Source: Candidatus Woesebacteria bacterium (GTDB lineage: Bacteria > Patescibacteriota > Microgenomatia > UBA8517). From it: a stretch of DNA of 64,000 bases. The notes below the pieces were generated by a model. The model was not told the DNA's origin. It saw only the letters and a list, made by a program, of their open reading frames with translations, and ran no database searches. The DNA lies in the NCBI GenBank assembly GCA_016700095.1, contig CP065002.1, forward strand, positions 112,463 through 176,462, written 5' to 3'. A program made the translations under genes and the position numbers. This document shows, piece after piece, positions 220-27,841 of the stretch (position 1 is its first letter; each line of letters starts with the position of its first letter).

Positions 220-433
220 TCGTCGGAATATGCTTCGTTTACCGCAAATTGCTTATGCTTTTTGCTTTTCACTATGCAATTCCTCCTCTCAAATCGCAAT
301 GCGATTTGTTAGAAATATCTAATACAACCAGACAAACAATTTTTCGTCCATCGCCAAGCTTAAGGACTTCAAACGCATGTCGGTTGCTCCTTTCCAATTT
401 TATTTTGTAAAATTGGGATAATACTTTAATTTT

Positions 434-880
434 TTAAATTCTATTCTTATCTTTCTCGCCCCTAAATTCTCTTTCTATTTCTCTTTCGATGTCGTGTTTT
501 TTGATACTTTCTTTTTTCTGGTGTTTGAGTTTAGATTTTGCCAAAGCAATCTCTATTTTTATTAAGCGCTTCTTAGTATACAGTCTTGTAGGCACGATAG
601 TCAATTTTTTAGCCTTGATTTTGGTTTTTATGGAAACGATTTCACTTTTATGAAGTAGGAGCTTTCTGATTCTTGCTTGGTTGTAATTTTTCTTACCTTC
701 CACCGGTATATCCGCATTGATTAGAAAAAGTTCATCTTCCATAACTTTTACATGTGAGTTGGAAAGATTGGCATGACCTCCCCGAATTGCTTTTACTTCA
801 CCGCCTAAAAGCGCAATTCCTGCCTCATACTTATCAAACAGAATGTAATTAAAATTAACCTTTTTGTTTACGATATTCAT
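434..880 (-). CDS. smpB: SsrA-binding protein SmpB
   Basis: 148 aa with a typical SmpB core (FNYILFDKYEAGIALLGGEVKAIRGG ... LHKSEI) and a lysine-rich C-terminal tail. Adjacent to the tmRNA. Confidence 0.9.
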   Translation of the reverse strand: MNIVNKKVNFNYILFDKYEAGIALLGGEVKAIRGGHANLSNSHVKVMEDELFLINADIPVEGKKNYNQARIRKLLLHKSEIVSIKTKIKAKKLTIVPTRLYTKKRLIKIEIALAKSKLKHQKKESIKKHDIEREIEREFRGEKDKNRI

Positions 881-3736: not shown

Positions 3737-3844
3737 GAGCGGAGGAGGTGGGATTCCTTTCGGCTCACTATGTTCGCTCAAGGCAAGCTTCTCATCCCGA
3801 TTTATAAAACAAAATACCTCACACTTTGGTGAGGATTTTTGTTA
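3737..3844. repeat. About 108-nt unit = tRNA-Ser 3'-terminal 18 nt (GCGGAGGAGGTGGGATTC on +) + 63-nt conserved segment + terminator hairpin. Copy A, immediately 3' of tRNA-Ser(GGA).
   Basis: Same unit as the copies at 4861-5175. It begins with an exact duplicate of tRNA positions about 57-74. Confidence 0.85.
3817..3843 (-). terminator. Rho-independent terminator after tRNA-Ser(GGA), bidirectional
   Basis: CCTCAC-ACTTTG-GTGAGG hairpin followed by ATTTTTGTT on +. On the minus strand the same hairpin is followed by UAUUUUGUUUUAU. It recurs in every repeat unit. Confidence 0.5.
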
Positions 3845-3845
3845 G

Positions 3846-3929
3846 CGGAGGAGGTGGGATTCGAACCCACGTAGCCCGTAAGGACTCGGGCTTTCCAAGC
3901 CCGTGCAATTGGCCGCTATGCGACTCCTC
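3846..3929 (-). tRNA. tRNA-Ser(GGA)
   Basis: Hand-folded. Acceptor GGAGGAG/CTCCTCC, D-arm GCA..TGC, anticodon stem CGGGC/GCCCG with loop TTGGAAA (anticodon GGA), long variable arm, T-arm GTGGG-TTCGAAT-CCCAC, discriminator G. CCA is not encoded. Confidence 0.9.
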
Positions 3930-4100
3930 CATTATTATTCAAAAGATGTCGCTCAAGCTTTCGCTTATGCGACTCCTCCAAAACTTATTTACAAATCAAG
4001 AGTCGGACAAGCTTTCGCTTATGCGACTCCTCCAAATCTTTTTTACAAATCAAGAGTCGGACAAGCTTTCGCTTATGCGACTCCTCCAAAACTTATTTAT
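3930..4100. repeat. Tandem repeat, period 54 nt, about 3 copies; each carries the first 13 nt of the tRNA-Ser (rc GCGACTCCTCC..) plus about 41 nt
   Basis: GCTTATGCGACTCCTCC recurs at 54-nt spacing. The intervening sequence is also near-identical (AAACTTATTTACAAATCAAGAGTCGGACAAGCTTTC). Confidence 0.85.
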
Positions 4101-4274
4101 AAAACACTGCTTATATGTCATTAACCTAATATTTATCAAGATATAATTTATTTACTAATATGATCACCTACAAGAATGTTACGTTAGTAAATGTTATAAA
4201 ATTGTTGGTCAATAAATATATACTACTAAAGGTTAACAGGAATGAGGGTATTATATCAAAAAGTGAAGATAAAA

Positions 4275-4736
4275 TTACTTGAGATCATCTTCTTCCATCT
4301 GTTTGTCTTTACCGCTTTTTTTCCATTCGGCAAGTTCTTTGCGTGCAGCTTTCAGCATAGATTGATCTCTTTTTGATGATAGCTTTCTCGTTGCTTGTGC
4401 ATACGGAAACCATTCGCCCTTGGTAAAACCGACAGCTTCTCCTGCACTGGAAAGCTCAATCATTAAATAATACAAATGTCTTTGCGGAACGGTTTTGTCG
4501 TTTATTGTTGTTACTCCACCGGCTCGACCGGCTTCTTCTAAGACTCGTGCGGTCATTCCCGCCTGTTCGCCCATTAGTCTGATTGCGGCTCTTACGGATG
4601 ATTCACCTTTTCTGACAATTGTTTTGGGAAATTCCCACTCACCATCGTCAGATGTTTTAACTAAAAACCAATCATCTTTTTCACCCTTTTGTTTTGCAGT
4701 AACCGTACTTGAAATTAGCACTAAACTTTTATCCAT
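4275..4736 (-). CDS. NUDIX-fold protein with a degenerate NUDIX box
   Basis: GEWEFPKTIVRKGESSVRAAIRLMGEQAG aligns to the GGWEFPGGKxExGE..REL.EELG NUDIX box, but the REx and EE catalytic residues are replaced (RLM, EQ). Embedded between the two tRNA-Ser repeat arrays. Confidence 0.55.
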   Translation of the reverse strand: MDKSLVLISSTVTAKQKGEKDDWFLVKTSDDGEWEFPKTIVRKGESSVRAAIRLMGEQAGMTARVLEEAGRAGGVTTINDKTVPQRHLYYLMIELSSAGEAVGFTKGEWFPYAQATRKLSSKRDQSMLKAARKELAEWKKSGKDKQMEEDDLK

Positions 4737-4860
4737 TGTTGTTATTATACACGAAGTTTGTAAGTTATGAAGCCTGATTGAGGTTTAAGTCTCGTGTTTT
4801 TATGATTCGCTCGTGCAATGTTGGTGGATTGTGTCCACCGAAGTGAGCTTTGATGAACAT

Positions 4861-5200
4861 GGGGCAAGGAGGTGGGATTTCTTTCGGCTCACTATGTTCG
4901 CTCAAGGCAAGCTTCTCATCCCGATGCATAAAACATAAAACTTCACACTTTGGTGAGGATTTTTGTTAGCGGAGGAGGTGGGATTCCTTTCGGCTCACTA
5001 TGTTCGCTCAAGGCAAGCCTCTCATCCCGATACATAAAACTTCACACTTTGGTGAGGATTTTCTTGTTAGCGGAGGAGGTGGGATTCCTTTCGCTCACTA
5101 TGTTCGCTCAAGGCAAGCTTCTCGTCCCGATACATAAAACATAAAACTTCACACTTTGGTGAGGATTTTCTCGTTTGCGGAGGAGGTGGGATTCGCTACA
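4861..5200. repeat. Tandem array of 3 full (about 99-108 nt) units plus one partial unit: tRNA-Ser 3'-terminal 18 nt + conserved 63 nt + terminator hairpin. Lies 3' of tRNA-Ser(GCT).
   Basis: Units at about 4861-4967, 4968-5066 and 5067-5175, with a partial unit at 5176-5194. Each begins GCGGAGGAGGTGGGATT(C/T) (the first copy is GCAAGGAGGTGGG) and ends CACACTTTGGTGAGGATTTT. Confidence 0.85.
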
Positions 5201-5263
5201 CACAAATAAAATTCCTTACTTGTTGTGTCCATCGAACGCCAACTGTGACGCGAACCTCGTGAG

Positions 5264-5348
5264 CGGAGGAGGTGGGATTCGAACCCACGTAGCCGGTAAG
5301 GGCTCAGGATTAGCAATCCTGTGCAATTGGCCGCTATGCGACTCCTCC
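5264..5348 (-). tRNA. tRNA-Ser(GCT)
   Basis: Hand-folded. Same acceptor, D- and T-arms as the GGA isoacceptor. Anticodon stem CAGGA/TCCTG with loop TTGCTAA (anticodon GCT). Long variable arm, discriminator G. Confidence 0.9.
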
Positions 5349-5525
5349 AAATCTTTTTTACAAATCAAGAGTCGGACAAGCTTCCGCTTATGCGACTCCT
5401 CCAAAACTTATTTATAAATCAAGAGTCGGACAAGCTTTCGCTTATGCGACTCCTCCAAAATGTAATCATTGAGGAGAGTGCACAAAGTTCTCACGTAGTG
5501 AGGTTTTTATGCGACTCCTCCTAAA
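5349..5525. repeat. Tandem repeat (period 54 nt, then a variant unit) carrying 3 further copies of the tRNA-Ser 5'-terminal 11-13 nt
   Basis: (AT)GCGACTCCTCC occurs at about 5338, 5392, 5446 and 5512. Units are near-identical to the 3930-4100 array. The last unit contains its own CTCAC-GTA-GTGAG + T5 hairpin. Confidence 0.85.
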
Positions 5526-5780: not shown

Positions 5781-6335
5781 ATGGAAAAGGAAAACGTTAA
5801 GCTTGAAAAACCGGTAGAACAAGAAGATGATATCAAGCGTGTAATTGTTGAGACCCCAAACGAAAAATCGCTTTATAAATGGCGGGGGAGCGCACGAGCT
5901 TTTAAAAAACGTGATCGAGATTTTTGGGTGTCAGTTATTGCCATTGCATCGGTGACCGGTTTTATACTTTTTATTATTGAAGGGATAATTTCTGTAATAC
6001 TTATTATTTCAATCTTGTTTCTATATTACGTTTTGAGCACGGTAGAACCCGGAGAAATCGACTATGAAATTACAAACAAAAGTATTATTATTGCCGGTGA
6101 GAAAAATCCACTAGAGAATTTTATTTGGTTCTGGTTCGGACAAAGTCTTGGAAATGAAGTGTTGGTTTTGGGCTCTGTTAATATGCCCGGCAGACTTGAT
6201 TTGGTTTACAAATTAGAAGATAAAGAGAAATTGCGCAAGGTGCTTTCCCCGTATCTACCGGAACTAACCGATTCTCCAACGAGAACCGATAAAGCGACAG
6301 AATGGTTGTCAAAGAAAATCCCCGCAAATAAATAA
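5781..6335 (+). CDS. Hypothetical membrane protein (2 TM)
   Basis: 184-aa ORF with a hydrophobic core region. No recognisable domain. Confidence 0.5.
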   Translation: MEKENVKLEKPVEQEDDIKRVIVETPNEKSLYKWRGSARAFKKRDRDFWVSVIAIASVTGFILFIIEGIISVILIISILFLYYVLSTVEPGEIDYEITNKSIIIAGEKNPLENFIWFWFGQSLGNEVLVLGSVNMPGRLDLVYKLEDKEKLRKVLSPYLPELTDSPTRTDKATEWLSKKIPANK

Positions 6336-7716: not shown

Positions 7717-8125
7717 GAGTTAAATTCATTTGGGGTTTTTCAACCCAATCTTGTACACATTATTAATTTAGTTTAAACAATAAACGTGGAGTGGGTTATG
7801 AAAAATGTACACTAAAAAACCAACAAATATTTCTTGTTGAGAAATGTACAAGATTGTTGAAGATTATAGATTAACATGTTTTGGTTCACGACCTTTCGTA
7901 ACCTTGAAACTGTTTTGAAATGTAAGTATGGAGGGATATTTGTTTGCTGGAAAATTTATGCTAATTCTAATGATATTTGTGGCAGCATGGTCAACTCTTT
8001 AACAGAGTTTTTTTACTTTATAATTCAAATTATTATATGCATGTATACATTTCAGACTTGGTAGTTATTTTCTGTACAAGCACTGTTGATAAACAAATTG
8101 GCAATAACTATTACCTTGAGTTATA

Positions 8126-8463: not shown

Positions 8464-10248
8464 ATGACAGATAATCAAGTCGAGGAAGTAAAGGCAAAAA
8501 CGGACATCGTGACCGTTATTGGAGAATACGTGAATTTGACGAAAGCAGGCCGCAATTACAAGGCTAATTGTCCATTTCACAACGAAAAATCCCCATCTTT
8601 TATAGTGTCACCCGAGATGCAACGCTACAAATGTTTTGGTTGCGGTGTGTCAGGTGATGTTTTCACTTTTTTAGAAGAATACGAGGGACTTGAATTTTAC
8701 GAAGCCCTGAAAAGTCTAGCCAGTAAAGCCAATATTAAACTTAAAAAACCGACCGGAAACAAAAGCGATAAAGAAAAGCTCCTTGAGGTTAATAGTCTGT
8801 TGGCAAAATTTTATCATTATTTATTGGTCAAACATCCCATTGGCAAGCCCGCTTTGCACTATCTTCTTGATATAAGAAAATTGAAAAGAGAAACACTTGA
8901 GACATTTCAGTTGGGATTTTCTCCGGAAGACAGCAGTATTTTTCGTCAGTTTATAATTGGCAAAAAAAAGATTGACACAAAAATTCTACATACCTTGGGA
9001 ATTTTAGTTGATGAGAAAAAGATCTGGGATAGATTCAGGGGAAGAATAATTTTTCCTCTAATTGATCACAGGGGTGAACCGATTGGTTTTGCAGGACGGA
9101 TATTACCGCAGTTTGATTCCGGAAAAGTTGGTAAGTACATCAATTCTCCCCAAACCCCCTTGTATCAAAAATCGTTCCATTTGTATGGATTAAACATAAC
9201 CAGAAGTGACATTAAAAAGAAACGGGAAGTGATTATGGTTGAGGGTGAACTTGATTTGATTTCGGTTTGGCAAGCAGGGATAAAAAACACTGTTGCAATT
9301 AAAGGAAGCGCAATTACCCAAGAGCAGTCTTTTTTGATAAGACGATTTGCCGATAGGGTTATCCTGGCACTTGATGCTGATATTGCGGGTGATGCTGCTG
9401 CAAGACGGGGGATTGCAATTGCCGAAAAAGCCGGTTTAGAAGTTAGGATTGCGCAACTTGGTAAATATAAAGATCCCGATGATGCGGTCAAGGCAAACCC
9501 TGACGATTTTAGAAAAATCATCGCAACAGCGGTACCCATTTGGGACTTTTTAATTGAAAGTGCAATTGCAAGGTACGGTGATTCTACAGGTGTTCAAAAA
9601 TCGAAAGTCAGTAAAGAAATTGTTCCTGTCCTCGCTTTGATTAATGACCAGATTGTAAAGGCGCATTATATCGGAATTGCAGCAAAAAAACTCGGCGTGC
9701 CGGTCGAGGCCGTAACTAAACAAGTAGCTGGTTACCATGTCGAAAAAAACGCACAGGTTCCAAAACTGGAATTTGTTCAACCGAAAGAAGGGACTCATAG
9801 GCGTGATCTGATTGAACGAAGATTGTTGGCGGTTGCTTTTGCTAATGATCCGACAAATTTATTAACCAATGAAATCAAGTCCAGTTTCCGTACTGTATTG
9901 GCAATAAAAATAATCGATTGTTACAAGTCGTTTATGCGTATTAATAAACAATATAATCTGTCGGGATTTTCTTCATATTTACCACAAGAGTTGTATGAAG
10001 GTTTCAGCGACGCAATTATGGAGGACTTATCCAATCAAGGTAAAAATGCTTCCCCGGATCGAGAATTTAACATGCTGGTTGTTGAATTAAACAAACTGGA
10101 TATCAAACAAGAACTTGAAACTCTCGCGGAGTCATTTATAAAATTAGAAAGCACTAAACAGAAAAAAGAATTGAAGGAAGCACAAAAATTGTTTAGGGAA
10201 AAGTCGCACCAACTGGCGGAAATTGAAAAACGCTCTTTGCTCAAATGA
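8464..10248 (+). CDS. dnaG: DNA primase DnaG
   Basis: CHC2 zinc finger (CPFHNEKSPSF...CFGCG), TOPRIM region (EGELD, LALDADIAGD). Classic dnaG-rpoD order. Confidence 0.92.
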   Translation: MTDNQVEEVKAKTDIVTVIGEYVNLTKAGRNYKANCPFHNEKSPSFIVSPEMQRYKCFGCGVSGDVFTFLEEYEGLEFYEALKSLASKANIKLKKPTGNKSDKEKLLEVNSLLAKFYHYLLVKHPIGKPALHYLLDIRKLKRETLETFQLGFSPEDSSIFRQFIIGKKKIDTKILHTLGILVDEKKIWDRFRGRIIFPLIDHRGEPIGFAGRILPQFDSGKVGKYINSPQTPLYQKSFHLYGLNITRSDIKKKREVIMVEGELDLISVWQAGIKNTVAIKGSAITQEQSFLIRRFADRVILALDADIAGDAAARRGIAIAEKAGLEVRIAQLGKYKDPDDAVKANPDDFRKIIATAVPIWDFLIESAIARYGDSTGVQKSKVSKEIVPVLALINDQIVKAHYIGIAAKKLGVPVEAVTKQVAGYHVEKNAQVPKLEFVQPKEGTHRRDLIERRLLAVAFANDPTNLLTNEIKSSFRTVLAIKIIDCYKSFMRINKQYNLSGFSSYLPQELYEGFSDAIMEDLSNQGKNASPDREFNMLVVELNKLDIKQELETLAESFIKLESTKQKKELKEAQKLFREKSHQLAEIEKRSLLK

Positions 10249-10287
10249 GCTTATCGCTGTATAATTCACCCTAGCTTAAAGAAATTT

Positions 10288-11400
10288 ATGACAAATACGA
10301 AAACAAATTCAAAACCTTCGAAATTAACCAAATCGCAAGAAGATCTAATAAAACAAGGTAAAGAGCAGGGATTTTTGACACAAGACAATATCTTGGAAGT
10401 GTACCCCGAGGCAGAAAAACATCTTGATGAATTGGATGCTTTGTACGATATCCTAATTGCCGAAGGATTGGATGTTTTCGAGAGTGTTGTCGGTGAAGAA
10501 TTTGAAACCGATGACTTGGCACGGGATAAATTGGACAAAGAAATCGAAATTCTTTCCAAACTCTCAGGTGCGGAAAGCACCGATCCCGTCAGACAATATT
10601 TACGTGAGATTGGAAAAGTACCCTTACTTTTTGCAGAAGAAGAAGTGGAATTGGCGAAACGTTTTGAGAAGGGTGAGAAATTTGCTAAAGATAAACTTAC
10701 AGAAAGCAATTTGAGGTTAGTCGTTTCGATTGCCAAAAAATATATCGGTCGCGGACTTTCTCTCCTTGATTTAATCCAAGAAGGTAATCAGGGTCTTATT
10801 CGTGCGGTAGAAAAATACGACTGGAGAAAAGGATATAAATTCTCAACTTATGCAACATGGTGGATAAGACAGGCGATAACACGAGCGATCGCAGATCAAG
10901 CAAGGACGATTAGAATTCCTGTCCACATGGTGGAAACGATCAATAAACTTTACCGAATTAGCAGGCGTTTAATGCAAGAAAAAGGTAGAGAACCGACTGC
11001 TGACGAGATTGCAGAAGAAGCGGAAGTAGAACCGGAACGTGTACGCGAAATCTTTAAAATAGCTCAAGAAGTTGCCTCATTGGAAGCTCCCGTCGGAGAG
11101 GACAAAGAGAGTTTTCTTGGGGATTTCATACCCGATGATAACCAATTGTCTCCAGTGGATGCCGCGAGCAAGCAACTTTTAAAAGATCACCTTGATGAAG
11201 TGTTGGCGACTCTTTCGGAAAGAGAAGCAAAGGTTCTTAAACTCCGTTTTGGACTTGAGGGCAGTAAACAAATGACCTTGGAAGAAGTTGGAAAAGTCTT
11301 CGGTGTAACTCGTGAACGAATTAGACAAATCGAAGCAAAGGCGTTAAGAAAACTCAAACACCCCAGTAGAAGGAAAAAACTTCAGGATTATTTGGAATAA
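10288..11400 (+). CDS. rpoD: RNA polymerase sigma-70 factor RpoD
   Basis: Regions 1.2 to 4.2 are present ([41 protein letters not shown]; region 4 HTH). Confidence 0.95.
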
Positions 11401-11441
11401 TTGGAATTATCTAAAGACACCCGAATAAACTTTGACAACAA

Positions 11442-12314
11442 TTACTTCACGAAATAAAAAGTTATGTAACTGGTTGTGCCGTCTAAATTATCGATATCTA
11501 CCAGTTTAGCCGAATTTGTGTTTACAAGTAACTGTGGCGTAGCGGTGTTTTCCTTCATAAGTTTGGAGATAATATACACAGAGGCGGGTGTATCGACATG
11601 TTTTACGGAATCTAAATTGTAAATTTTATCAAGGTGGAAGTTGGTAATTACCTCTATGCTTTGTTTGTCAAAACCGTCTGCCATGTTTGATGTTTGGTAA
11701 TGCGAGAAATCGGCACTTACGAGAACCAAAACATCCTCACTCAATGATCGTAAAATTTCAGTCAATTGGTCACATTCCTCTTTGGTAGTGGTCGATTTGA
11801 CGGTAATTGGTACAAGTTTCGCAGACGGAAATTTCTTTTTTATAAAGGCGACTGTTCCGTAAACGGCGTGTTCGTTTTCGAAAACATTTTCATTGTGTCC
11901 GGCTGTGTCTTTAGATATGTTATCCAATATTTCCACATTGGGGTTTAACTCACCGTAAGGTGTTTCCCACCTCGCATAAGAAACCTGGATATTGTCATAT
12001 CCTGCATTGTAATGATTTGGCGTAATCAAAATAATGGTGTCGAAATTTTCTTCGATACCGTCAAAAAATGCTTGAATTATCGGTGCCGCAAGTAAGTGGT
12101 GGGGGATAATTCCGCCAAGTACTTTTCCATTTGGAGATATGCGGTATTTGACGGCTTTTTCTTCGGCTTGATTGTAAAAATCAAGATCATACTGCCTCGA
12201 GGAATGAGTAAGAGTGTGATTAGAGTCGACATTGTTGTCGCGGTGTACGAGGTAGATTTGTCCAAACAAAGATAGGATTACAAAACTAGAAAAAACAATC
12301 AGCAACCACTTCAT
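11442..12314 (-). CDS. MEMO1 / AmmeMemoRadiSam system protein B family (class III extradiol dioxygenase fold)
   Basis: N-terminal signal/TM. PHH, NHYNAGY, ENEHAVYG (ExxHSxE-like) and SADFSHY (SxDLSH-like) motifs. Confidence 0.5.
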   Translation of the reverse strand: MKWLLIVFSSFVILSLFGQIYLVHRDNNVDSNHTLTHSSRQYDLDFYNQAEEKAVKYRISPNGKVLGGIIPHHLLAAPIIQAFFDGIEENFDTIILITPNHYNAGYDNIQVSYARWETPYGELNPNVEILDNISKDTAGHNENVFENEHAVYGTVAFIKKKFPSAKLVPITVKSTTTKEECDQLTEILRSLSEDVLVLVSADFSHYQTSNMADGFDKQSIEVITNFHLDKIYNLDSVKHVDTPASVYIISKLMKENTATPQLLVNTNSAKLVDIDNLDGTTSYITFYFVK

Positions 12315-15546: not shown

Positions 15547-15621
15547 TCCCCGGTAGCTCAGCGGCAGAGCAGAGAGCTGTTAACTCTAAGGTCGTAGGTT
15601 CGAATCCTACCCGGGGAGCCA
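15547..15621 (+). tRNA. tRNA-Asn(GTT), CCA encoded
   Basis: Acceptor TCCCCGG/CCGGGGA (U1-A72), D-arm GCTC..GAGC, anticodon loop CTGTTAA, T-arm GTAGG-TTCGAAT-CCTAC, discriminator G + CCA. Confidence 0.9.
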
Positions 15622-15692
15622 GATAGTAATTAAAAATAACTATTTGAAAAGCACCGAAGGGTGTGAAGCCATTTCACCCGACGGGTGATATA
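15613..15692 (+). repeat. 80-bp direct repeat, copy 1 (attL-like); starts inside the tRNA-Asn 3' end (GGGGAGCCA)
   Basis: Exactly identical to 17515-17594. Contains the GTGAA-GCCAT-TTCAC and CACCC-GAC-GGGTG hairpins. Confidence 0.9.
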
Positions 15693-15859
15693 ATCCAAAC
15701 AACTTAGCTAAAGCCACTAGAGAGCTTTTTGATTTGTTTGAAATAACTACAAGAACTTATTGCGAGAAAGTTAATAAAGATTTCCCAGAAGACAAAGTTA
15801 TCGCAATGCGTAGGTTATTTGACGAGTTTGATTTGGCTAAAAAGTGACCAATATTTTTT

Positions 15860-16870
15860 ATGAAGTTTATTGCATATACAGTGAAGGGGTTAGAAGAAAT
15901 TGCAAAAGACGAGTTGTTTCAACTTACGCCAAATGCTGAGGTTCTGGAAGTAGGTCCCAAAAGGATTATTTTTGAAATTGATGAGGCAATGCCTTTATTA
16001 AAGCTAACTACAGTGGACGATATTGGTTTGCTAGTAAGCCAATATAAAGGGATAAACATTGATGAAATCACTTCTAATATATTAGAACTTAACTTTGGTG
16101 AAGCTAAAGACAAACTTCGTGACATACGCAAAATAGAAGATACTTTTTCAGTTACGGTTAGTAAAGCAAGAACCCAGATTGATACAAATGATCTTCAAGT
16201 AAAAATTGCTAATGCTTTAATTGATAAATACAAATGGGAATATACCCAACTAGACCATACTACTTTTGATGTGCGGGTTTTTATTGATAAAAAAGATATT
16301 TATGTGTCAGTTAGGCTAACCGAGAAGCCGTTATTTCACAGGACTTATAAAGTTGCTTCGGTCATAGGCGCATTAAAGCCAACAATAGCTTCTGCGATGG
16401 TTAGATTAGCCATACAAGGCACTAAAGGTCTTGTGGTGGATAGTTTCTGTGGTAGTGGCACTATTTTAGCCGAGGCGTTAGGCGCGGGTAATGAGGTCTA
16501 TGGAGGTGATATAAGTGGCGAGGCCATAGAAGTTTGTAAAACTACATTAAGAAATATGGGTTACGAACCTAGCGACAAAATTAAAGAGCAGGATGCAACT
16601 AAAACAAACTGGCCTGACAATTACTTTGACTTTGCTATTTCAAACTTACCTTGGGACAAACAAATAAAAATTGATAGCGTTACGAACCTTTATATCGGAA
16701 CCTTATCTGAGTATGCTCGTATGGTTAAACCGTTAGGAAGTATATGCCTTTTAGTTTCAAACCCAGATTTACTTGTAAAACTCGCCAAAAAGTATTTTCC
16801 TAATAGAAAAATAGGGAAATTAACAATTGGAGTATTGGGTCAAAAGCCTACAATTGTTACTATTAGTTAG
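15860..16870 (+). CDS. THUMP-domain class I SAM-dependent RNA methyltransferase (Trm14/TrmN/RlmL-like)
   Basis: N-terminal THUMP-like region. SAM motif I VDSFCGSGTILAEA and NPPY-like motif IV SNLPWD. Confidence 0.7.
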   Translation: MKFIAYTVKGLEEIAKDELFQLTPNAEVLEVGPKRIIFEIDEAMPLLKLTTVDDIGLLVSQYKGINIDEITSNILELNFGEAKDKLRDIRKIEDTFSVTVSKARTQIDTNDLQVKIANALIDKYKWEYTQLDHTTFDVRVFIDKKDIYVSVRLTEKPLFHRTYKVASVIGALKPTIASAMVRLAIQGTKGLVVDSFCGSGTILAEALGAGNEVYGGDISGEAIEVCKTTLRNMGYEPSDKIKEQDATKTNWPDNYFDFAISNLPWDKQIKIDSVTNLYIGTLSEYARMVKPLGSICLLVSNPDLLVKLAKKYFPNRKIGKLTIGVLGQKPTIVTIS

Positions 16871-17465
16871 CTTCTATATTCTCCTTAACCCACTCGTCTA
16901 AGTCCATATTGATATTGTAGGTAATGTAATTTTCGTCAGCACTTGGAGCTTCAAACATACCTAAGGCTCTTTTAAGGGTTACTTCTTCAAGTTGACCTCG
17001 TTCTTTGGTTTGTTCATTCCTTTCCCACCTAGCCCTAATTTCGTTTAGTGGTGTATTTAGGTATATAAGTTTTGACCCAACATTTAAGCTTTTTGCTATA
17101 TTTTTAGCAGTTTCTCGTTCACTCCTTTTAAGATTGCCGAGGTCTAATACGACAGTCTTACCTTCGGACAATAACTTTTTAAGCTCCTTATATCCTTCTG
17201 AGTAAACTATGTTCCAGTCGTCCTGTGTCATTTCTTCAACCTCGTAACCTTTTTCGTCCATAATATCGTCCATAGAAACACCACTAAAACCAAACCGTTT
17301 AGTGAGTTCTTTGGTAAGTGTAGTTTTTCCTGAGTAAGGAAGTCCTATCAAAATATAAAGCATAAGCATATTATAAAGGTTAATTTGCAGTAAGGTAATT
17401 GGCTTTACTATAATCTTGCTGATAGGCAAGTAGGCATTGAAGCATAACCTCGCTTTGCTTATCAA
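16863..17465 (-). CDS. P-loop kinase (AAA_33 / polynucleotide-kinase-like / zeta-like NTPase fold)
   Basis: Walker A GLPYSGKTT near the N-terminus; about 170-aa kinase fold. Convergent with, and overlapping, the THUMP gene. Confidence 0.6.
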   Translation of the reverse strand: MISKARLCFNAYLPISKIIVKPITLLQINLYNMLMLYILIGLPYSGKTTLTKELTKRFGFSGVSMDDIMDEKGYEVEEMTQDDWNIVYSEGYKELKKLLSEGKTVVLDLGNLKRSERETAKNIAKSLNVGSKLIYLNTPLNEIRARWERNEQTKERGQLEEVTLKRALGMFEAPSADENYITYNINMDLDEWVKENIEAN

Positions 17466-17514
17466 GATATTGCGAACTAGGGTTATTTATAAATGTGCCT
17501 ATTAGGGGGAGCCA

Positions 17515-17594
17515 GATAGTAATTAAAAATAACTATTTGAAAAGCACCGAAGGGTGTGAAGCCATTTCACCCGACGGGTGATATACTAGTTAAC
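17515..17594 (+). repeat. 80-bp direct repeat, copy 2 (attR-like), with degenerate extension into tRNA T-arm sequence (CCTATTAGGGGGAGCCA)
   Basis: Exact match to 15613-15692. The preceding 8 nt resemble tRNA-Asn ..CCTACCCGGGGAGCCA with mismatches. Confidence 0.9.
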
Positions 17595-17770: not shown

Positions 17771-18175
17771 ATGAGAAAATTTGAATTCAAAAAACTGGTA
17801 AGAGACAAAATTGTAGAAGGCATTATCGCAGTGGGTAACAAACCAAACTGGAAAACCCTATCCGACTCAGAGTTTGTTCATGAGCTAAAGAAAAAGATTG
17901 TCGAGGAGGCTTTGGAAGTACCACGGACAAATGACCCAGCGGAAGTAGTTAAGGAATTGGCAGACATACAGGAAATAATTGACAACTTGTTGGAAGCGCT
18001 AAAGATTTCAAAAGAAAAATTTGCAGAAGTTCAGAAGAAAAAGAATGAAGACCGAGGTTCGTTCAAGAAAAGACAATATATTGACACAGTAGAAACTTCA
18101 GACGAAGTTACCAAGTGGGTTTCGTATTACCTTGATAATCCGGATAAATACCCTGAGGTCAAAGATGTCAAATAG
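17771..18175 (+). CDS. MazG-like nucleotide pyrophosphohydrolase (small all-alpha NTP-PPase)
   Basis: KLVRDKI and EELADIQEII motifs typical of the MazG/HisE-like fold. Confidence 0.5.
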   Translation: MRKFEFKKLVRDKIVEGIIAVGNKPNWKTLSDSEFVHELKKKIVEEALEVPRTNDPAEVVKELADIQEIIDNLLEALKISKEKFAEVQKKKNEDRGSFKKRQYIDTVETSDEVTKWVSYYLDNPDKYPEVKDVK

Positions 18176-19995: not shown

Positions 19996-20622
19996 CTACA
20001 AAATAAGTGACGCCACAAAGAAATAAATCGTGATACTCAAGATGTCCTGGATAATGGTTGCAATTGGGCCACTGGCGTTAGCGGGATCCGTATTTGTTTT
20101 TTCAAAGATTCTCGGCATGATAAGACCGGTAAAAACAGAAGAAAGAATTGAGAAAAATAAAGAGATTGATAAAACCATGCTTATTGTTAGTTCGTGATTA
20201 AGTATCAGCGTAGAGAGAAATAAAAGTAAACTGACAATCAATCCAACAAAGGTGACCGTTGTCAGATGTTTCATGAAATATTTTATAAAATTTATCTTTG
20301 GATGCATGGCGAAATCGCGAATGACATACGATTCCATTTGTGTTCCCACGGCATCGCTCATATAGACAATCAAAGGTATAAATCCCGCCAAAACGATGTT
20401 TGTCGAGAGAAGTTCTTCAAATCCTCCAACAATTTTGGAAGCGAGAAGTCCTCCAAGTAAACCAATAAATAGCCACGGAAGTCGGTGTTTGAGGGATTTT
20501 GTCAGTGATAGTTTGAAAACATCATCGATCTGACCCGTATGATTAATGTTTTTGTGATGGTGAGAATAGGCACGCATGAAATTAAAGAAAAACGCTCGCA
20601 ACGCCAAAGTAAATCGAAACAC
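19996..20622 (-). CDS. MgtE-like membrane domain protein (TM domain only)
   Basis: Paralogous to the C-terminal half of the upstream MgtE (..GPIATIIQDILSITIYFFVA vs ..GPFATILQDLLSVSIYFGVA). Confidence 0.65.
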   Translation of the reverse strand: MFRFTLALRAFFFNFMRAYSHHHKNINHTGQIDDVFKLSLTKSLKHRLPWLFIGLLGGLLASKIVGGFEELLSTNIVLAGFIPLIVYMSDAVGTQMESYVIRDFAMHPKINFIKYFMKHLTTVTFVGLIVSLLLFLSTLILNHELTISMVLSISLFFSILSSVFTGLIMPRIFEKTNTDPANASGPIATIIQDILSITIYFFVASLIL

Positions 20623-21586
20623 TCAGAAGATCTTGTAAAATAGTAGCAAACGGGCCACTACCTGACGCGGGTTCTTGGTTTAGCTTGAAAAGAAGGTAGG
20701 GAATTAAGACCGCGACAATTGTCGATACGGAAATGGCAACAAATGATGCCAAACCAACCACAATTCCAATAAAAGACAATTTCCAAAATGTAGCGATTAC
20801 CAACCAAATTAAAGTACCGCATATTAGGCCAATACAAGTACTGGAGACGAGTTGCTTTGCAAAATACGGAAGGATTGTCAGTTTGGGACTAAAAGCTAAA
20901 TCACGAACAAGGAAAGTTTGGGTCTGAGCACCCACTGCATTGCCTATATAAACGACAAGAGGAATGAATATCGCAAGAACCACATTTGCCGATAAGGTGT
21001 GTTCGAAAAATCCAATTACTTGTGCGGAGAAAATTCCTCCAATTAATCCCACTAATATCCACGGTAAACGAGAGATGATGTTTTTAAAAATACCATAGTC
21101 AAGAATTGTTTGGTATTTGTCTCCAATTGAAACGACTCCTGCGAAATGATGAAAGCTGTTCCTGTATTGATTGTAAAGAATTGCCAACACTTTATCGTTC
21201 GTGAGTACACCCACAAGGTGATTGGTAGTATCGACAATGGGAACGGCTTTGATGTTATGTTTTATTGCCATGTGCGCAACTTTTCCTTTGTTTATTTTTG
21301 GATGACTAACGACCAGATCCGTTATCATAATGTCTTTGACCTTTTTGGCGGGGTCGTTTTGGAATAATTCTTTTATGGAAATTACACCGGCTAACTGACT
21401 GTTTATATTATTTACGTAAATATAATCGACACTGTCTGTGTTTTGGGTAAATTCTGACAGCTTGTTTCTTATTTCTCCAATTGTCATGTTGCTATCAACT
21501 ACCGGTATTTTGGTTGTAATGTCTTTGCCGACGGCTCCGTTGGGCAGGCGAAGTTTCTTCTTGGTTTGTAATTTACGTGAATTCAT
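20582..21586 (-). CDS. mgtE: Magnesium transporter MgtE (CBS pair + TM domain)
   Basis: Tandem CBS domains followed by an MgtE TM domain with the conserved D/E-rich motif. Confidence 0.85.
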   Translation of the reverse strand: MNSRKLQTKKKLRLPNGAVGKDITTKIPVVDSNMTIGEIRNKLSEFTQNTDSVDYIYVNNINSQLAGVISIKELFQNDPAKKVKDIMITDLVVSHPKINKGKVAHMAIKHNIKAVPIVDTTNHLVGVLTNDKVLAILYNQYRNSFHHFAGVVSIGDKYQTILDYGIFKNIISRLPWILVGLIGGIFSAQVIGFFEHTLSANVVLAIFIPLVVYIGNAVGAQTQTFLVRDLAFSPKLTILPYFAKQLVSSTCIGLICGTLIWLVIATFWKLSFIGIVVGLASFVAISVSTIVAVLIPYLLFKLNQEPASGSGPFATILQDLLSVSIYFGVASVFL

Positions 21587-27250: not shown

Positions 27251-27841
27251 ATGAAACCTTACGAAAAAGTATTGCAAGACGCAATTTTTCCCGAGCTTGA
27301 AAAGGGTCGACCCAATTGGGATAAGCCGCACACCGAAACCGTTGTTTGCTATGTTAAAAAAATTATTGAAAAATCAAAGGAATTGAATCTAGACGAGGAC
27401 GTTTTGATTATCGCCGCTTATGCCCACGATTGGGGATATGCGAGGTTGTTTGAAAAGGGCAAGCGCTTAAGTTTGGAGGATATCAATAAAGCTAAAAAGG
27501 TTCATATGATTATCGGAGCCGATAACATAAAAAATCTGCTGACGAGTGATGAGTTTGATTTTTTGTCCAACAAACAAAAACGTCGGGTGGAGCATCTAGT
27601 CCGCGTTCATGACAACCTAGATATTTTACAAGACACGGATGAATTGGTGTTGATGGAGGCAGATACACTAGCGGGATTAGATGTAAAAAGTGTAAAGCCG
27701 TCTTTTGATGCAGTGTCAAATGCTAGGTACATGAGAAGTGTTTATACCAAAAGATACCCTTTGTTTATAACCGATTACGCCCTGGATCTGTTTGCAAAAC
27801 TTTTCAAACAAAGGCAAGATTATTACAGAGGTTTAGATTAA
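27251..27841 (+). CDS. HD-domain phosphohydrolase
   Basis: H..(AAYAHDWGY) HD motif in a 196-aa protein. Confidence 0.7.
   Translation: MKPYEKVLQDAIFPELEKGRPNWDKPHTETVVCYVKKIIEKSKELNLDEDVLIIAAYAHDWGYARLFEKGKRLSLEDINKAKKVHMIIGADNIKNLLTSDEFDFLSNKQKRRVEHLVRVHDNLDILQDTDELVLMEADTLAGLDVKSVKPSFDAVSNARYMRSVYTKRYPLFITDYALDLFAKLFKQRQDYYRGLD

Follow-up and report, generated by a model that had tools for sequence, protein, structure and literature searches.

An exact repeat at a Woesebacteria tRNA-Asn gene probably marks the attR-proximal remnant of a large serine recombinase element

Introduction

Myxococcus phage Mx8, whose attP lies inside the gene of its tyrosine integrase (intP), provides a bacterial precedent for an attachment site within int, and phage phiRSM is an example of a small serine recombinase at a tRNA. 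Serine integrases are directional, and attB together with attR is not a substrate pair for them. Archaeal 'suicidal' tyrosine integrases of the SSV1 type have their att site in the integrase gene, target a tRNA and are split on integration (PMC8371274); the same 2021 review restricts self-disrupting integrases to archaea (PMC8371274), and tRNA genes have been reported not to be among the known targets of serine integrases (PMC7192596). Here we analyse a 64-kb stretch (the window in what follows) of a 1.27-Mb contig from a Candidatus Woesebacteria genome, in which an exact 80-nt direct repeat that starts in the 3' end of a tRNA-Asn(GTT) gene brackets an islet with two genes, one for a methyltransferase (MTase) and one for a kinase. 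We consider this islet to be, with good probability, the attR-proximal end of a large serine recombinase (LSR) integrative element inserted at the tRNA-Asn(GTT) 3' end; it is a recombinase-less remnant, not a complete LSR element. This reading is carried by the repeat, the tail of a recombinase gene, a sharp and site-specific break, family-wide targeting of tRNA genes and a truncated gene.

Results

The repeat and its right-hand junction

The features on which the argument depends are as follows.

15547-15621, plus strand: tRNA-Asn(GTT) with encoded CCA (ARAGORN; Rfam RF00005, 66.9 bits)
15613-15692, plus strand: repeat copy 1, made up of 9 nt of the tRNA end (with the core GGAGCC) and 71 nt of downstream flank (B')
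17383-17511, minus strand: last 42 codons and stop codon of an LSR gene (LPLIGTFINNPSSQYLDKQSEVMLQCLLAYQQDYSKANYLTAN, then stop; blastn, tblastx, tblastn and translation)
17483-17530, no strand: attR junction with P arm TTATTTATAAATGTGCCTATTAG, core GGGGAGCC and B' arm AGATAGTAATT... (sharp end of homology against four relatives)
17506-17585, plus strand: repeat copy 2, its first ~8 nt belonging to the recombinase open reading frame (ORF) and att core, the other ~72 nt to the native tRNA-Asn flank

Repeat search and tRNA call agree with a first-pass annotation of the sequence that an exact 80-bp direct repeat runs from the tRNA-Asn 3' end around a two-gene islet. The copies are 100% identical, lie 1893 nt apart from start to start and enclose 1813 unique bases; the second had been placed at 17515-17594, 9 bases too far right. 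Copy 1 opens with the last 9 nt of the tRNA, GGGGAGCCA, encoded CCA included, and the flank after copy 2 runs on into a MazG-like gene at 17771. No third copy was found in the 64-kb window (shuffled controls gave 0 matches), which rules out a dispersed repeat there. The G+C content of the islet does not depart from that of its surroundings.

The right-hand copy is where the evidence for a recombinase is found. The ~140 nt between the kinase start and copy 2 are conserved above the level of coding regions across the window and two related loci, L083 and L092, and this conservation ends abruptly at ...TAGGGGGAGC, the opening bases of copy 2. The LSR tail in this interval matches the 3' end of the intact LSR gene of a further locus, L174, at 82% in blastn and 94% in tblastx, and residues 494-535 of protein P0195 find it in tblastn at 86% (E 1.5e-15); its reading frame in the window is still open. 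In L174 the intact recombinase (535 aa; Resolvase, Recombinase and Zn_ribbon_recom domains) stops 10 nt before the kinase gene. The intact LSRs of relatives are homologous exactly as far as GGGGGAGCC, with which copy 2 begins, and the copy-2 junction is therefore attR. It has the hybrid composition of such a site, ...GCCTATTAGGGGGAGCC from the P arm of the L174 attP being joined to AGATAG..., the B' arm supplied by the tRNA-Asn flank of the window itself.

These observations change how two earlier remarks are to be read. The T-arm-like stretch before copy 2 does resemble the tRNA (CCTATTAGGGGGAGCC versus CCTACCCGGGGAGCC), but it is the P arm of attP at the 3' end of a recombinase ORF and not a decayed tRNA; the P arm itself resembles the T-arm/acceptor part of a tRNA. 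Likewise, the islet was said to have no integrase, which is right as far as an intact recombinase is concerned but overlooks the 42-codon C-terminal piece. No N-terminal LSR part was found anywhere in the 64-kb window, nor was an intact LSR with Resolvase, Recombinase and zinc ribbon, such as L174 and three other loci (L087, L175 and L179) encode. The P' arm CATTAGWACGATACTCTGG is absent from the window as well. A structured RNA upstream of the kinase was considered and rejected: Rfam at E<=1 matched only the tRNA, and the region is LSR coding sequence.

The recombinase family and its predicted attachment site

The MTase-kinase pair is common to relatives, at unrelated loci and with the kinase in the same convergent position. 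Identity to the window is 54-75% for the MTase and 71-81% for the better conserved kinase. LSR genes and small HTH_17 genes adjoin the pair in several relatives, and the kinase gene stands immediately downstream of an LSR or an LSR tail in elements of several lineages. Conserved synteny of the same genes at the same locus without repeats, the arrangement expected of an ancestral locus, was not what we found.

Two of these loci are sisters that differ in the recombinase. L174, with the intact LSR, and L083, with the tail only, share MTases at 91%, kinases at 92% and a 2676-nt block at 88% with sharp ends, and the remoter window and L092 break at the same nucleotide as the L174/L083 comparison. 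A single ancestral deletion is therefore excluded, and the break is site-specific. In a second lineage, the intact LSR of L087 (635 aa) is followed downstream by the gene for a 199-aa protein and by the kinase, and L089 keeps only the last 45 LSR codons, ending ...GTCCCACCA / ...GCTGTCCCACCA. The other LSR copies of these two loci read antisense into the 3' ends of tRNA-Lys (L087) and tRNA-Gly (L089), and the inter-recombinase homology starts 1-3 nt past the tRNA ends. If attP lies in the LSR ORF, L089 would be expected as a single integrated element (tRNA, N-terminal LSR part, then MTase, kinase, 199-aa protein and LSR tail), and L087 as a tandem pair whose middle junction regenerates an intact LSR gene.

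The same pattern extends through the wider family. A search with the L174 LSR returned at least 397 proteins from the Candidate Phyla Radiation (CPR), 119 of which were listed; in 108 of these 119 the alignment covers no more than 90-94% of the query, and the majority have 496-505 residues. The 29 sequences that were read all share ...KKPYDILL.PEYR.N. and then diverge. Thirteen run on after ...EYRTNG into (D/E)SN tails (for example LRRQDSNL, LPRLDSNQQPS, LPREDSNLEPSS and RGRRDSNSQPLP), 12 stop within 2-3 codons of the divergence point, and three have long tails unrelated to tRNA, like the query. D-S-N is what GATTCGAAC encodes, and this sequence is the universal T-loop GGTTCGAATCC in reverse complement. 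Antisense overlap of LSR 3' ends with tRNA 3' ends is seen, besides the tRNA-Lys and tRNA-Gly cases, at tRNA-Ser (L175) and tRNA-Asn(GTT) (L179). The L179 recombinase is 85% identical to that of L174 and its tail, NGLRRQDSNL, is the exact antisense translation of tRNA-Asn(GTT); the subfamily to which the window's tail belongs therefore targets the same tRNA, and the true attL of this subfamily is present in L179.

Sister loci, family lengths and tRNA overlaps thus agree that the gene is split and re-tailed, and comparison of these sequences places the predicted attP inside the LSR ORF, ~42 codons before the stop. Read in reverse complement, the predicted attP of L174 is ...TTATTTATAAATGTGCCTATTAGGGGGAGCCCATTAGAACGATACTCTGG..., and four putative sites fit a single scheme with the common core GGAGCC:

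attL, in L179: ...TCGCCGGAGCC / CATTAGTACGATACTCTGG
attP, in L174: ...GCCTATTAGGGGGAGCC / CATTAGAACGATACTCTGG
attR, window copy 2: ...GCCTATTAGGGGGAGCC / AGATAGTAATT
attB-like, window copy 1: ...TCCTACCCGGGGAGCC / AGATAGTAATT

It is well supported that CPR elements carry LSRs which use tRNA 3' ends as attB, have attP in their own ORF and would be re-tailed at each integration. The Pfam domains Resolvase and Recombinase mark these proteins as serine, not tyrosine, recombinases. In PHROG the LSR matches 'integrase' (1e-69), and the alignment ends at residue 484 of 535, so that the C-terminal 8% removed by the split is non-conserved; an integrated LSR gene may therefore stay active. The LSR-junction motif, searched as an exact pattern, had no matches in metagenome or viral contigs, and viral contigs searched with the MTase and with the LSR gave none either.

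Several further observations were made at these loci. In L175, a 46-aa ORF directly upstream of the kinase homologue (5805-5945) starts with ATGGTGGGCAAGC, the antisense of the tRNA-like 3' end GCTTGCCCACCA, and may be the recombinase-tail/attR remnant of a different LSR subfamily. L179 has two LSR genes 4.5 kb apart (3837-5495 and 10001-11506), of which the second runs into tRNA-Asn; they probably belong to elements in tandem or nested within each other, whose cargo differs (an ABC transporter and small ORFs) and includes no MTase-kinase pair. L089 contains an exact 28-nt direct repeat (314-341 and 644-671) around a GIY-YIG endonuclease ORF (330-593, minus strand); the repeat overlaps the 5' part of a tRNA-Asp (265-339, minus strand), and the arrangement has the look of a homing-endonuclease-type insertion next to a tRNA gene. 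In L083 a ~63-nt upstream region is doubled (7745-7807 and 10316-10377, 82-95%) before the genes for a 718-aa protein and an HD-domain protein, possibly as a shared promoter or regulatory element.

The left joint

The left end of the islet is of a different kind, and one further feature is needed to describe it.

15689-15847, plus strand: 3' remnant of an ANT(6)/Pol-beta-type nucleotidyltransferase (NTase) gene, 52 codons and stop, no start codon (phmmer, Pfam, tblastn)

Compared with the other att sites, the left copy has the attB-like arrangement (B-core-B') of an unoccupied site, an intact tRNA-Asn with its 71-nt native flank. Simple integration would have set the N-terminal LSR part immediately behind the tRNA. 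A hybrid attL, in which B arm and core would be followed by the P' arm with the recombinase gene, was not found in the window. The NTase remnant begins where the repeat ends: its tblastn homology starts at 15689-15692, the repeat boundary, and it matches only the C-terminal ~50 residues of nucleotidyltransferases of ~275 aa. In phmmer against 1.84 billion proteins its matches included P0315 (E 1.3e-15), whose gene sits at a contig end, and P0317, a 275-aa protein with an Adenyl_transf/Polbeta assignment in Pfam, at residues 226-274; the genes that precede the MTase in other elements are unrelated to it. As neither an N-terminal LSR part nor a P' arm is present in the window, the left joint is an illegitimate one, the break having fallen within a gene of the original element, and up to 4 nt (TATA) of microhomology may have taken part in it.

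The att core is only the first ~8 nt of the repeat, and the remaining ~72 nt are duplicated host flank. The 80-bp repeat had been taken as the classic attL/attR pair, a description that does not hold, since only the right junction (attR) is a recombinase junction and the left one combines an attB-type site with a non-specific breakpoint. No flanking repeat comparable to that of the window was found around the MTase-kinase pair in L083, L087 or L089.

The 71-nt tRNA-Asn trailer (15622-15692 = 17515-17585) could form three consecutive hairpins (minimum free energy -23.2 kcal/mol, z -3.26). Rfam does not match it, no T-run occurs in it, and a search of the 80-bp repeat for a terminator-like site found none. 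The trailer may serve in tRNA 3' processing or in termination, or it may form part of the recombinase B' arm.

The methyltransferase and the kinase

The two cargo genes converge with an 8-nt overlap.

15860-16870, plus strand: THUMP-class S-adenosylmethionine (SAM)-dependent RNA MTase, guanine-N2 type by similarity (Trm14/TrmN-like), 336 aa (Pfam, NCBIfam, AlphaFold2 (AF2)/Foldseek)
16863-17369, minus strand: stand-alone P-loop kinase resembling polynucleotide kinase (PNK) and PSTK, 168 aa (Pfam, NCBIfam, PHROG, AF2/Foldseek)

For the first protein, Pfam, NCBIfam and Foldseek bear out the earlier call of a THUMP-domain SAM methyltransferase. Pfam matched UPF0020 (3.6e-18), THUMP (7e-4; 20.4 bits against a cutoff of 20.6) and, weakly, RlmL_1st. 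NCBIfam matched Trm14_Arch (4e-23; 82.1 bits against a cutoff of 280), Trm14_Thcoccales (54.9 bits against 480) and, in a near-full-length alignment, EmtA (1.9e-22; 80.1 bits against 625), so that none of these curated equivalog cutoffs is reached. The AF2 model (predicted local distance difference test score, pLDDT, 93) predicts an NFLD-THUMP module with a Rossmann SAM methyltransferase domain, and its Foldseek ranking puts Trm14 (full-length, 3tm5/3tlj; template modelling (TM) score 0.81-0.82) and TrmN (3tma; TM 0.78) ahead of RlmL and Trm11. In the family alignment, motif I (DSFCGSGT; consensus D.FCGSGT) has D194, F196, C197, S199, G200 and T201 invariant and G198 conserved in >=90%, and the NPPY-like motif IV (SNLPW) has S261, N262, P264 and W265 invariant and L263 conserved in >=90%. 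Judged by profiles and model, the protein is probably a THUMP-class RNA methyltransferase of the guanine-N2 type, and it would introduce an N2-methylguanosine (m2G)-type modification into tRNA or rRNA after docking via THUMP.

The MTase family is wide in Microgenomates (268 matches), with distant members in ordinary contexts such as QueF/Vut_1/TGT. The kinase partner is absent beside the remoter MTases (<=53% identity) and beside one nearer relative (65%). L093 and P0010 retain the MTase without kinase and recombinase tail, which hints at domestication by the hosts. In L093 (411-2026) the 65%-identical MTase is directly followed by an HD-domain gene that is 62% identical to an HD gene of the window (27251-27841), 10 kb downstream of the islet, and L083 also has an HD gene ~6 kb downstream; these genes suggest a common chromosomal neighbourhood and MTase-only retention. 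L083 (2436-3455) and L174 (3196-4221) have a second UPF0020/THUMP-like MTase of 339-341 aa directly upstream of the pair, which belongs to the 2.7-kb sharp-ended block of 88% identity.

The second protein had been described as a small AAA_33 polynucleotide-kinase-like P-loop protein, and both Pfam (AAA_33 9.6e-18; also KTI12 8e-13) and structure matches confirm this. NCBIfam gave PSTK at 1e-10 (41 bits against a cutoff of 290), and the best PHROG family was polynucleotide kinase (6e-11). Foldseek with the AF2 model (pLDDT 91.9) returned the highest TM scores for PSTK (0.78-0.80) and ~0.67 for PNKP and T4 PNK, which gluconate kinases follow closely. The Walker A motif GLPYSGKTT has G9, L10, P11, Y12, G14 and K15 invariant in the family alignment, S32 and D34 are invariant too, and the model predicts a PNK-like fold that has Walker A and, following strand 2, a catalytic Asp. 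The 168 residues hold the kinase domain only, with neither the C-terminal tRNA-binding domain of PSTK and KTI12 nor the phosphatase domain of T4 PNK, PNKP and Pnkp. An extended kinase ORF of 200 aa from a TTG start is a spurious extension into recombinase coding sequence. By its similarities the kinase would transfer phosphate to a nucleic-acid hydroxyl.

Other suggestions for the pair fared less well. A likeness to Pnkp/Hen1 modules had been proposed; TIGR04075 reaches 23.5 bits against a cutoff of 750, and we rejected such a cassette because the MTase is Trm14-like and of the N2-G type, not a Hen1-type 2'-O enzyme, and the kinase has no phosphatase or ligase. A tRNA-targeting toxin with its antidote had also been raised; a zeta-type kinase toxin would call for Zeta_toxin, which is missing from the Pfam matches at E <= 0.01. 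PADLOC recognised no defence system as a whole, its matches being weak and generic ones to methyltransferases and P-loop proteins.

We hypothesize that the pair acts on RNA, and tentatively adopt as a working mechanism that it modifies RNA, most likely the acceptor region of tRNA. Two results weigh against a tRNA-directed role and would suit a resistance or xenobiotic cassette instead, consisting of an ANT(6)-like nucleotidyltransferase, an EmtA-like rRNA MTase and a small-molecule kinase: the model of EmtA, a 23S rRNA G2470 MTase, scores about as well on the MTase as Trm14, and gluconate and sugar kinases have Foldseek E-values on the kinase as good as those of PNKP. The ANT(6)/streptomycin-adenylyltransferase likeness of the truncated upstream gene points the same way. 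We nevertheless think such a cassette unlikely. The EmtA score is far below its cutoff, the best full-length structural matches of the MTase are the tRNA m2G6 enzymes Trm14 and TrmN, the kinase has its top TM scores with PSTK and its best PHROG match with polynucleotide kinase, and a nucleotidyltransferase stands beside the pair in the window only.

Assembly evidence

When the same sequencing run (SRR11674018) is assembled independently at k=31 (Logan), the islet comes out as a separate contig of 1873 bp, corresponding to window positions 15663-17535 (the 1813 unique bases with 30 nt of repeat at each end), and the downstream contig begins at window position 17556, 30 nt inside the repeat. Since these contigs contain the transitions between unique DNA and repeat, both junctions are real in the reads. 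Such a graph is expected under either of two topologies, an integrated islet or a chromosome with an empty tRNA-Asn site next to a 1893-bp unit of islet and one repeat, which would exist as a free circle or only in a subpopulation and would have been threaded in by the assembler. The perfect repeat would permit RecA loop-out, and the two forms may therefore coexist; loop-out across the 80 bp may also be the cause of the assembly-graph branching at the repeat. As an explanation of the published sequence, an artefact or mixture of this kind is nonetheless quite improbable, as the repeat is shorter than an ordinary read and the published contig is 1.27 Mb long, so that the assembler probably had spanning reads, and a 1.9-kb circle, having no replication gene, could not maintain itself alone. 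Even a circle would still hold the attR-type junction and the truncated gene, and the origin from an element would stand.

Elsewhere in the window, overlapping minus-strand ORFs of 334 aa (CBS and MgtE) and 208 aa (MgtE) lie head to tail at 19996-21586; either two MgtE paralogues stand in tandem here or a single magnesium-transporter gene has been split.

Discussion

Taken together, our results argue for an LSR element at tRNA-Asn(GTT) of which the right end is left, and they allow a possible course of events to be outlined. The recombinase would have integrated the element at the tRNA-Asn 3' end through an attP inside its own ORF, splitting its gene. The N-terminal ~493 codons would have gone to attL, reading antisense into the tRNA, and the last 42 codons would have remained at attR beside the kinase and the convergent MTase. 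Subsequently the recombinase body and the rest of the element would have been lost and the right end would have survived, with truncated NTase, MTase, kinase, 42-codon tail and attR. In the simplest route, a chromosome with an empty site would have broken 71 nt past the tRNA and an occupied one within the NTase gene, and the two would have been joined in a single unequal, non-homologous event. Homology-facilitated illegitimate recombination with imported DNA would be equivalent, and so would an aberrant excision with later homologous re-insertion, each of these routes yielding tRNA and flank joined to ΔNTase, MTase, kinase, tail, attR and flank. By any of the three, the ~72 nt of host flank would be duplicated perfectly. 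Aberrant excision, as in lambda dgal, and homology-facilitated illegitimate recombination are processes that give one att end and one random breakpoint and carry host DNA along.

The first-pass annotation had presented the islet as an element at a tRNA 3' end that was either a remnant or mobilised in trans. Its foreign origin and remnant status stand; mobilisation in trans by a cognate LSR is unlikely, the P' arm and the true attL being missing. A trans-mobilised mini-element was rejected for the same missing arm and for its attB-like left site, from which a cognate recombinase in trans should therefore not excise the islet. At present the islet would be movable only by RecA-type, homologous loop-out across the 80 bp.

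Several points weigh against the reconstruction or weaken it. Among close relatives we found none with an empty tRNA-Asn site and none with the intact element at this locus; flank homology reaches 51% identity at best, and for the DUF3160 flank gene 185,579 species genomes held no relative above that value and none with a tRNA-Asn context. All att assignments come from comparing different genomes. The 71 nt are taken to be native host flank from their location behind the real tRNA, and both the order of events and the event behind the duplication are reconstructed. The k=31 graph is equally compatible with an integrated islet and with an empty site plus a free 1893-bp circle. Moreover, the open and conserved frame of the LSR tail would fit a recent event, but also a retained function, for example as a promoter of the kinase.

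The remaining rival origins are hard to reconcile with the locus. A classic tRNA island of a tyrosine integrase, with the 80-bp repeat as the attL/attR identity block and the integrase lost or acting in trans, would account for a direct repeat that starts within a tRNA 3' end, for the islet between its copies and for foreign cargo that is found on mobile elements elsewhere. We regard it as very improbable. Just 9 of the 80 nt are tRNA and 71 are downstream flank, which is not the displaced 3' fragment of such islands; on the right, the junction corresponds by homology to a site within serine recombinase genes, with similarity ending after GGGGGAGCC; and on the left a gene is cut off at a non-specific point, the attB-like copy there forming no serine-integrase substrate pair with attR. 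In addition, a scan that covered the islet and the genes called near the pair in related loci showed no tyrosine recombinase. Equally implausible is an ancestral housekeeping locus with MTase and kinase native beside tRNA-Asn and the repeat a local duplication of trailer or terminator, for although the MTase family is broad in Microgenomates with distant members in ordinary contexts, and an HD-domain gene lies downstream of the MTase in three relatives, the pair sits at differing loci with sharp homology boundaries and adjoining recombinases, it is flanked in the window by a recombinase gene tail and a truncated NTase gene, and no relative has tRNA-Asn beside the pair without these scars.

Taken by itself, the islet is a case of ordinary decay, a mobile-element end with a by-product duplication, and it cautions that a perfect repeat at a tRNA end need not be an att core. 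As an LSR-element remnant it is of a known kind, and it is the recombinase family that is of interest: we found no description in the literature of CPR LSRs at tRNA ends or of LSRs that re-tail themselves there, which given incomplete coverage is weak evidence of novelty. That these elements form an undescribed CPR class, with tRNA-end LSRs, attP in the ORF and a sub-class whose tRNA-directed MTase-kinase pair beside attP is functionally coupled, is a doubtful proposition at this stage, and the coupling of the pair to tRNA-end integration is pure hypothesis. Integration alters the 3' trailer of the targeted tRNA (in L179 the encoded CCA too), and the pair might process or mark this tRNA, or it might counter tRNA-cleaving defences. 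If confirmed, the recombinase behaviour would allow mobile elements in CPR genomes to be found, and their exact ends to be fixed, by a simple sequence rule. It would also provide a new set of serine integrases whose tRNA-end att sites are compact and predictable, and a conserved MTase-kinase cargo with a directly testable substrate.

How the cargo compares with described enzymes can be stated for each gene. The MTase shares with the m2G6 enzymes Trm14 (archaea) and TrmN (Thermus), and with RlmL and EmtA, the predicted NFLD-THUMP-Rossmann fold (TM 0.78-0.82), motif I and the NLPW motif IV, and it differs in lying far under the equivalog cutoffs, in sitting on mobile elements and in being paired with a kinase. 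The kinase resembles PSTK/KTI12 and the T4 and mammalian PNKs in its P-loop fold, Walker A motif and conserved Asp after strand 2, whereas it is a protein of only 168 aa without the tRNA-binding C-terminal, phosphatase and ligase domains of PSTK/KTI12, PNK and Pnkp. With Pnkp/Hen1 RNA repair the pair has in common that a kinase and an RNA methyltransferase are encoded together.

With regard to the element, the relatives' Resolvase, Recombinase and zinc-ribbon proteins of 500-635 aa are of the type found in LSR prophages and elements (phiC31, Bxb1, A118, SPbeta SprA). The att sites likewise share only a short core, and small HTH_17/MerR-type genes, which are possible directionality factors, lie beside the relatives' LSRs. 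The CPR proteins differ in targeting tRNA 3' ends and have 21-27% identity to phage LSRs, and the window keeps the 42-codon tail only. Islander-type tyrosine islands also have a tRNA at one end, a repeat with the tRNA 3' terminus at the other and accessory cargo between; in the window, however, the repeat is mostly non-tRNA host flank, the islet has no tyrosine integrase and the left end is no recombinase junction. The lambda dgal type, with its att junction and random breakpoint, duplicated adjacent host DNA and lost recombinase, offers an analogy for the proposed event. The SSV1-type integrases, finally, also have the attachment site inside the integrase gene and a tRNA as target, so that the mechanism is analogous, but here the enzyme is a serine recombinase, no member of that family, and the hosts are CPR bacteria.

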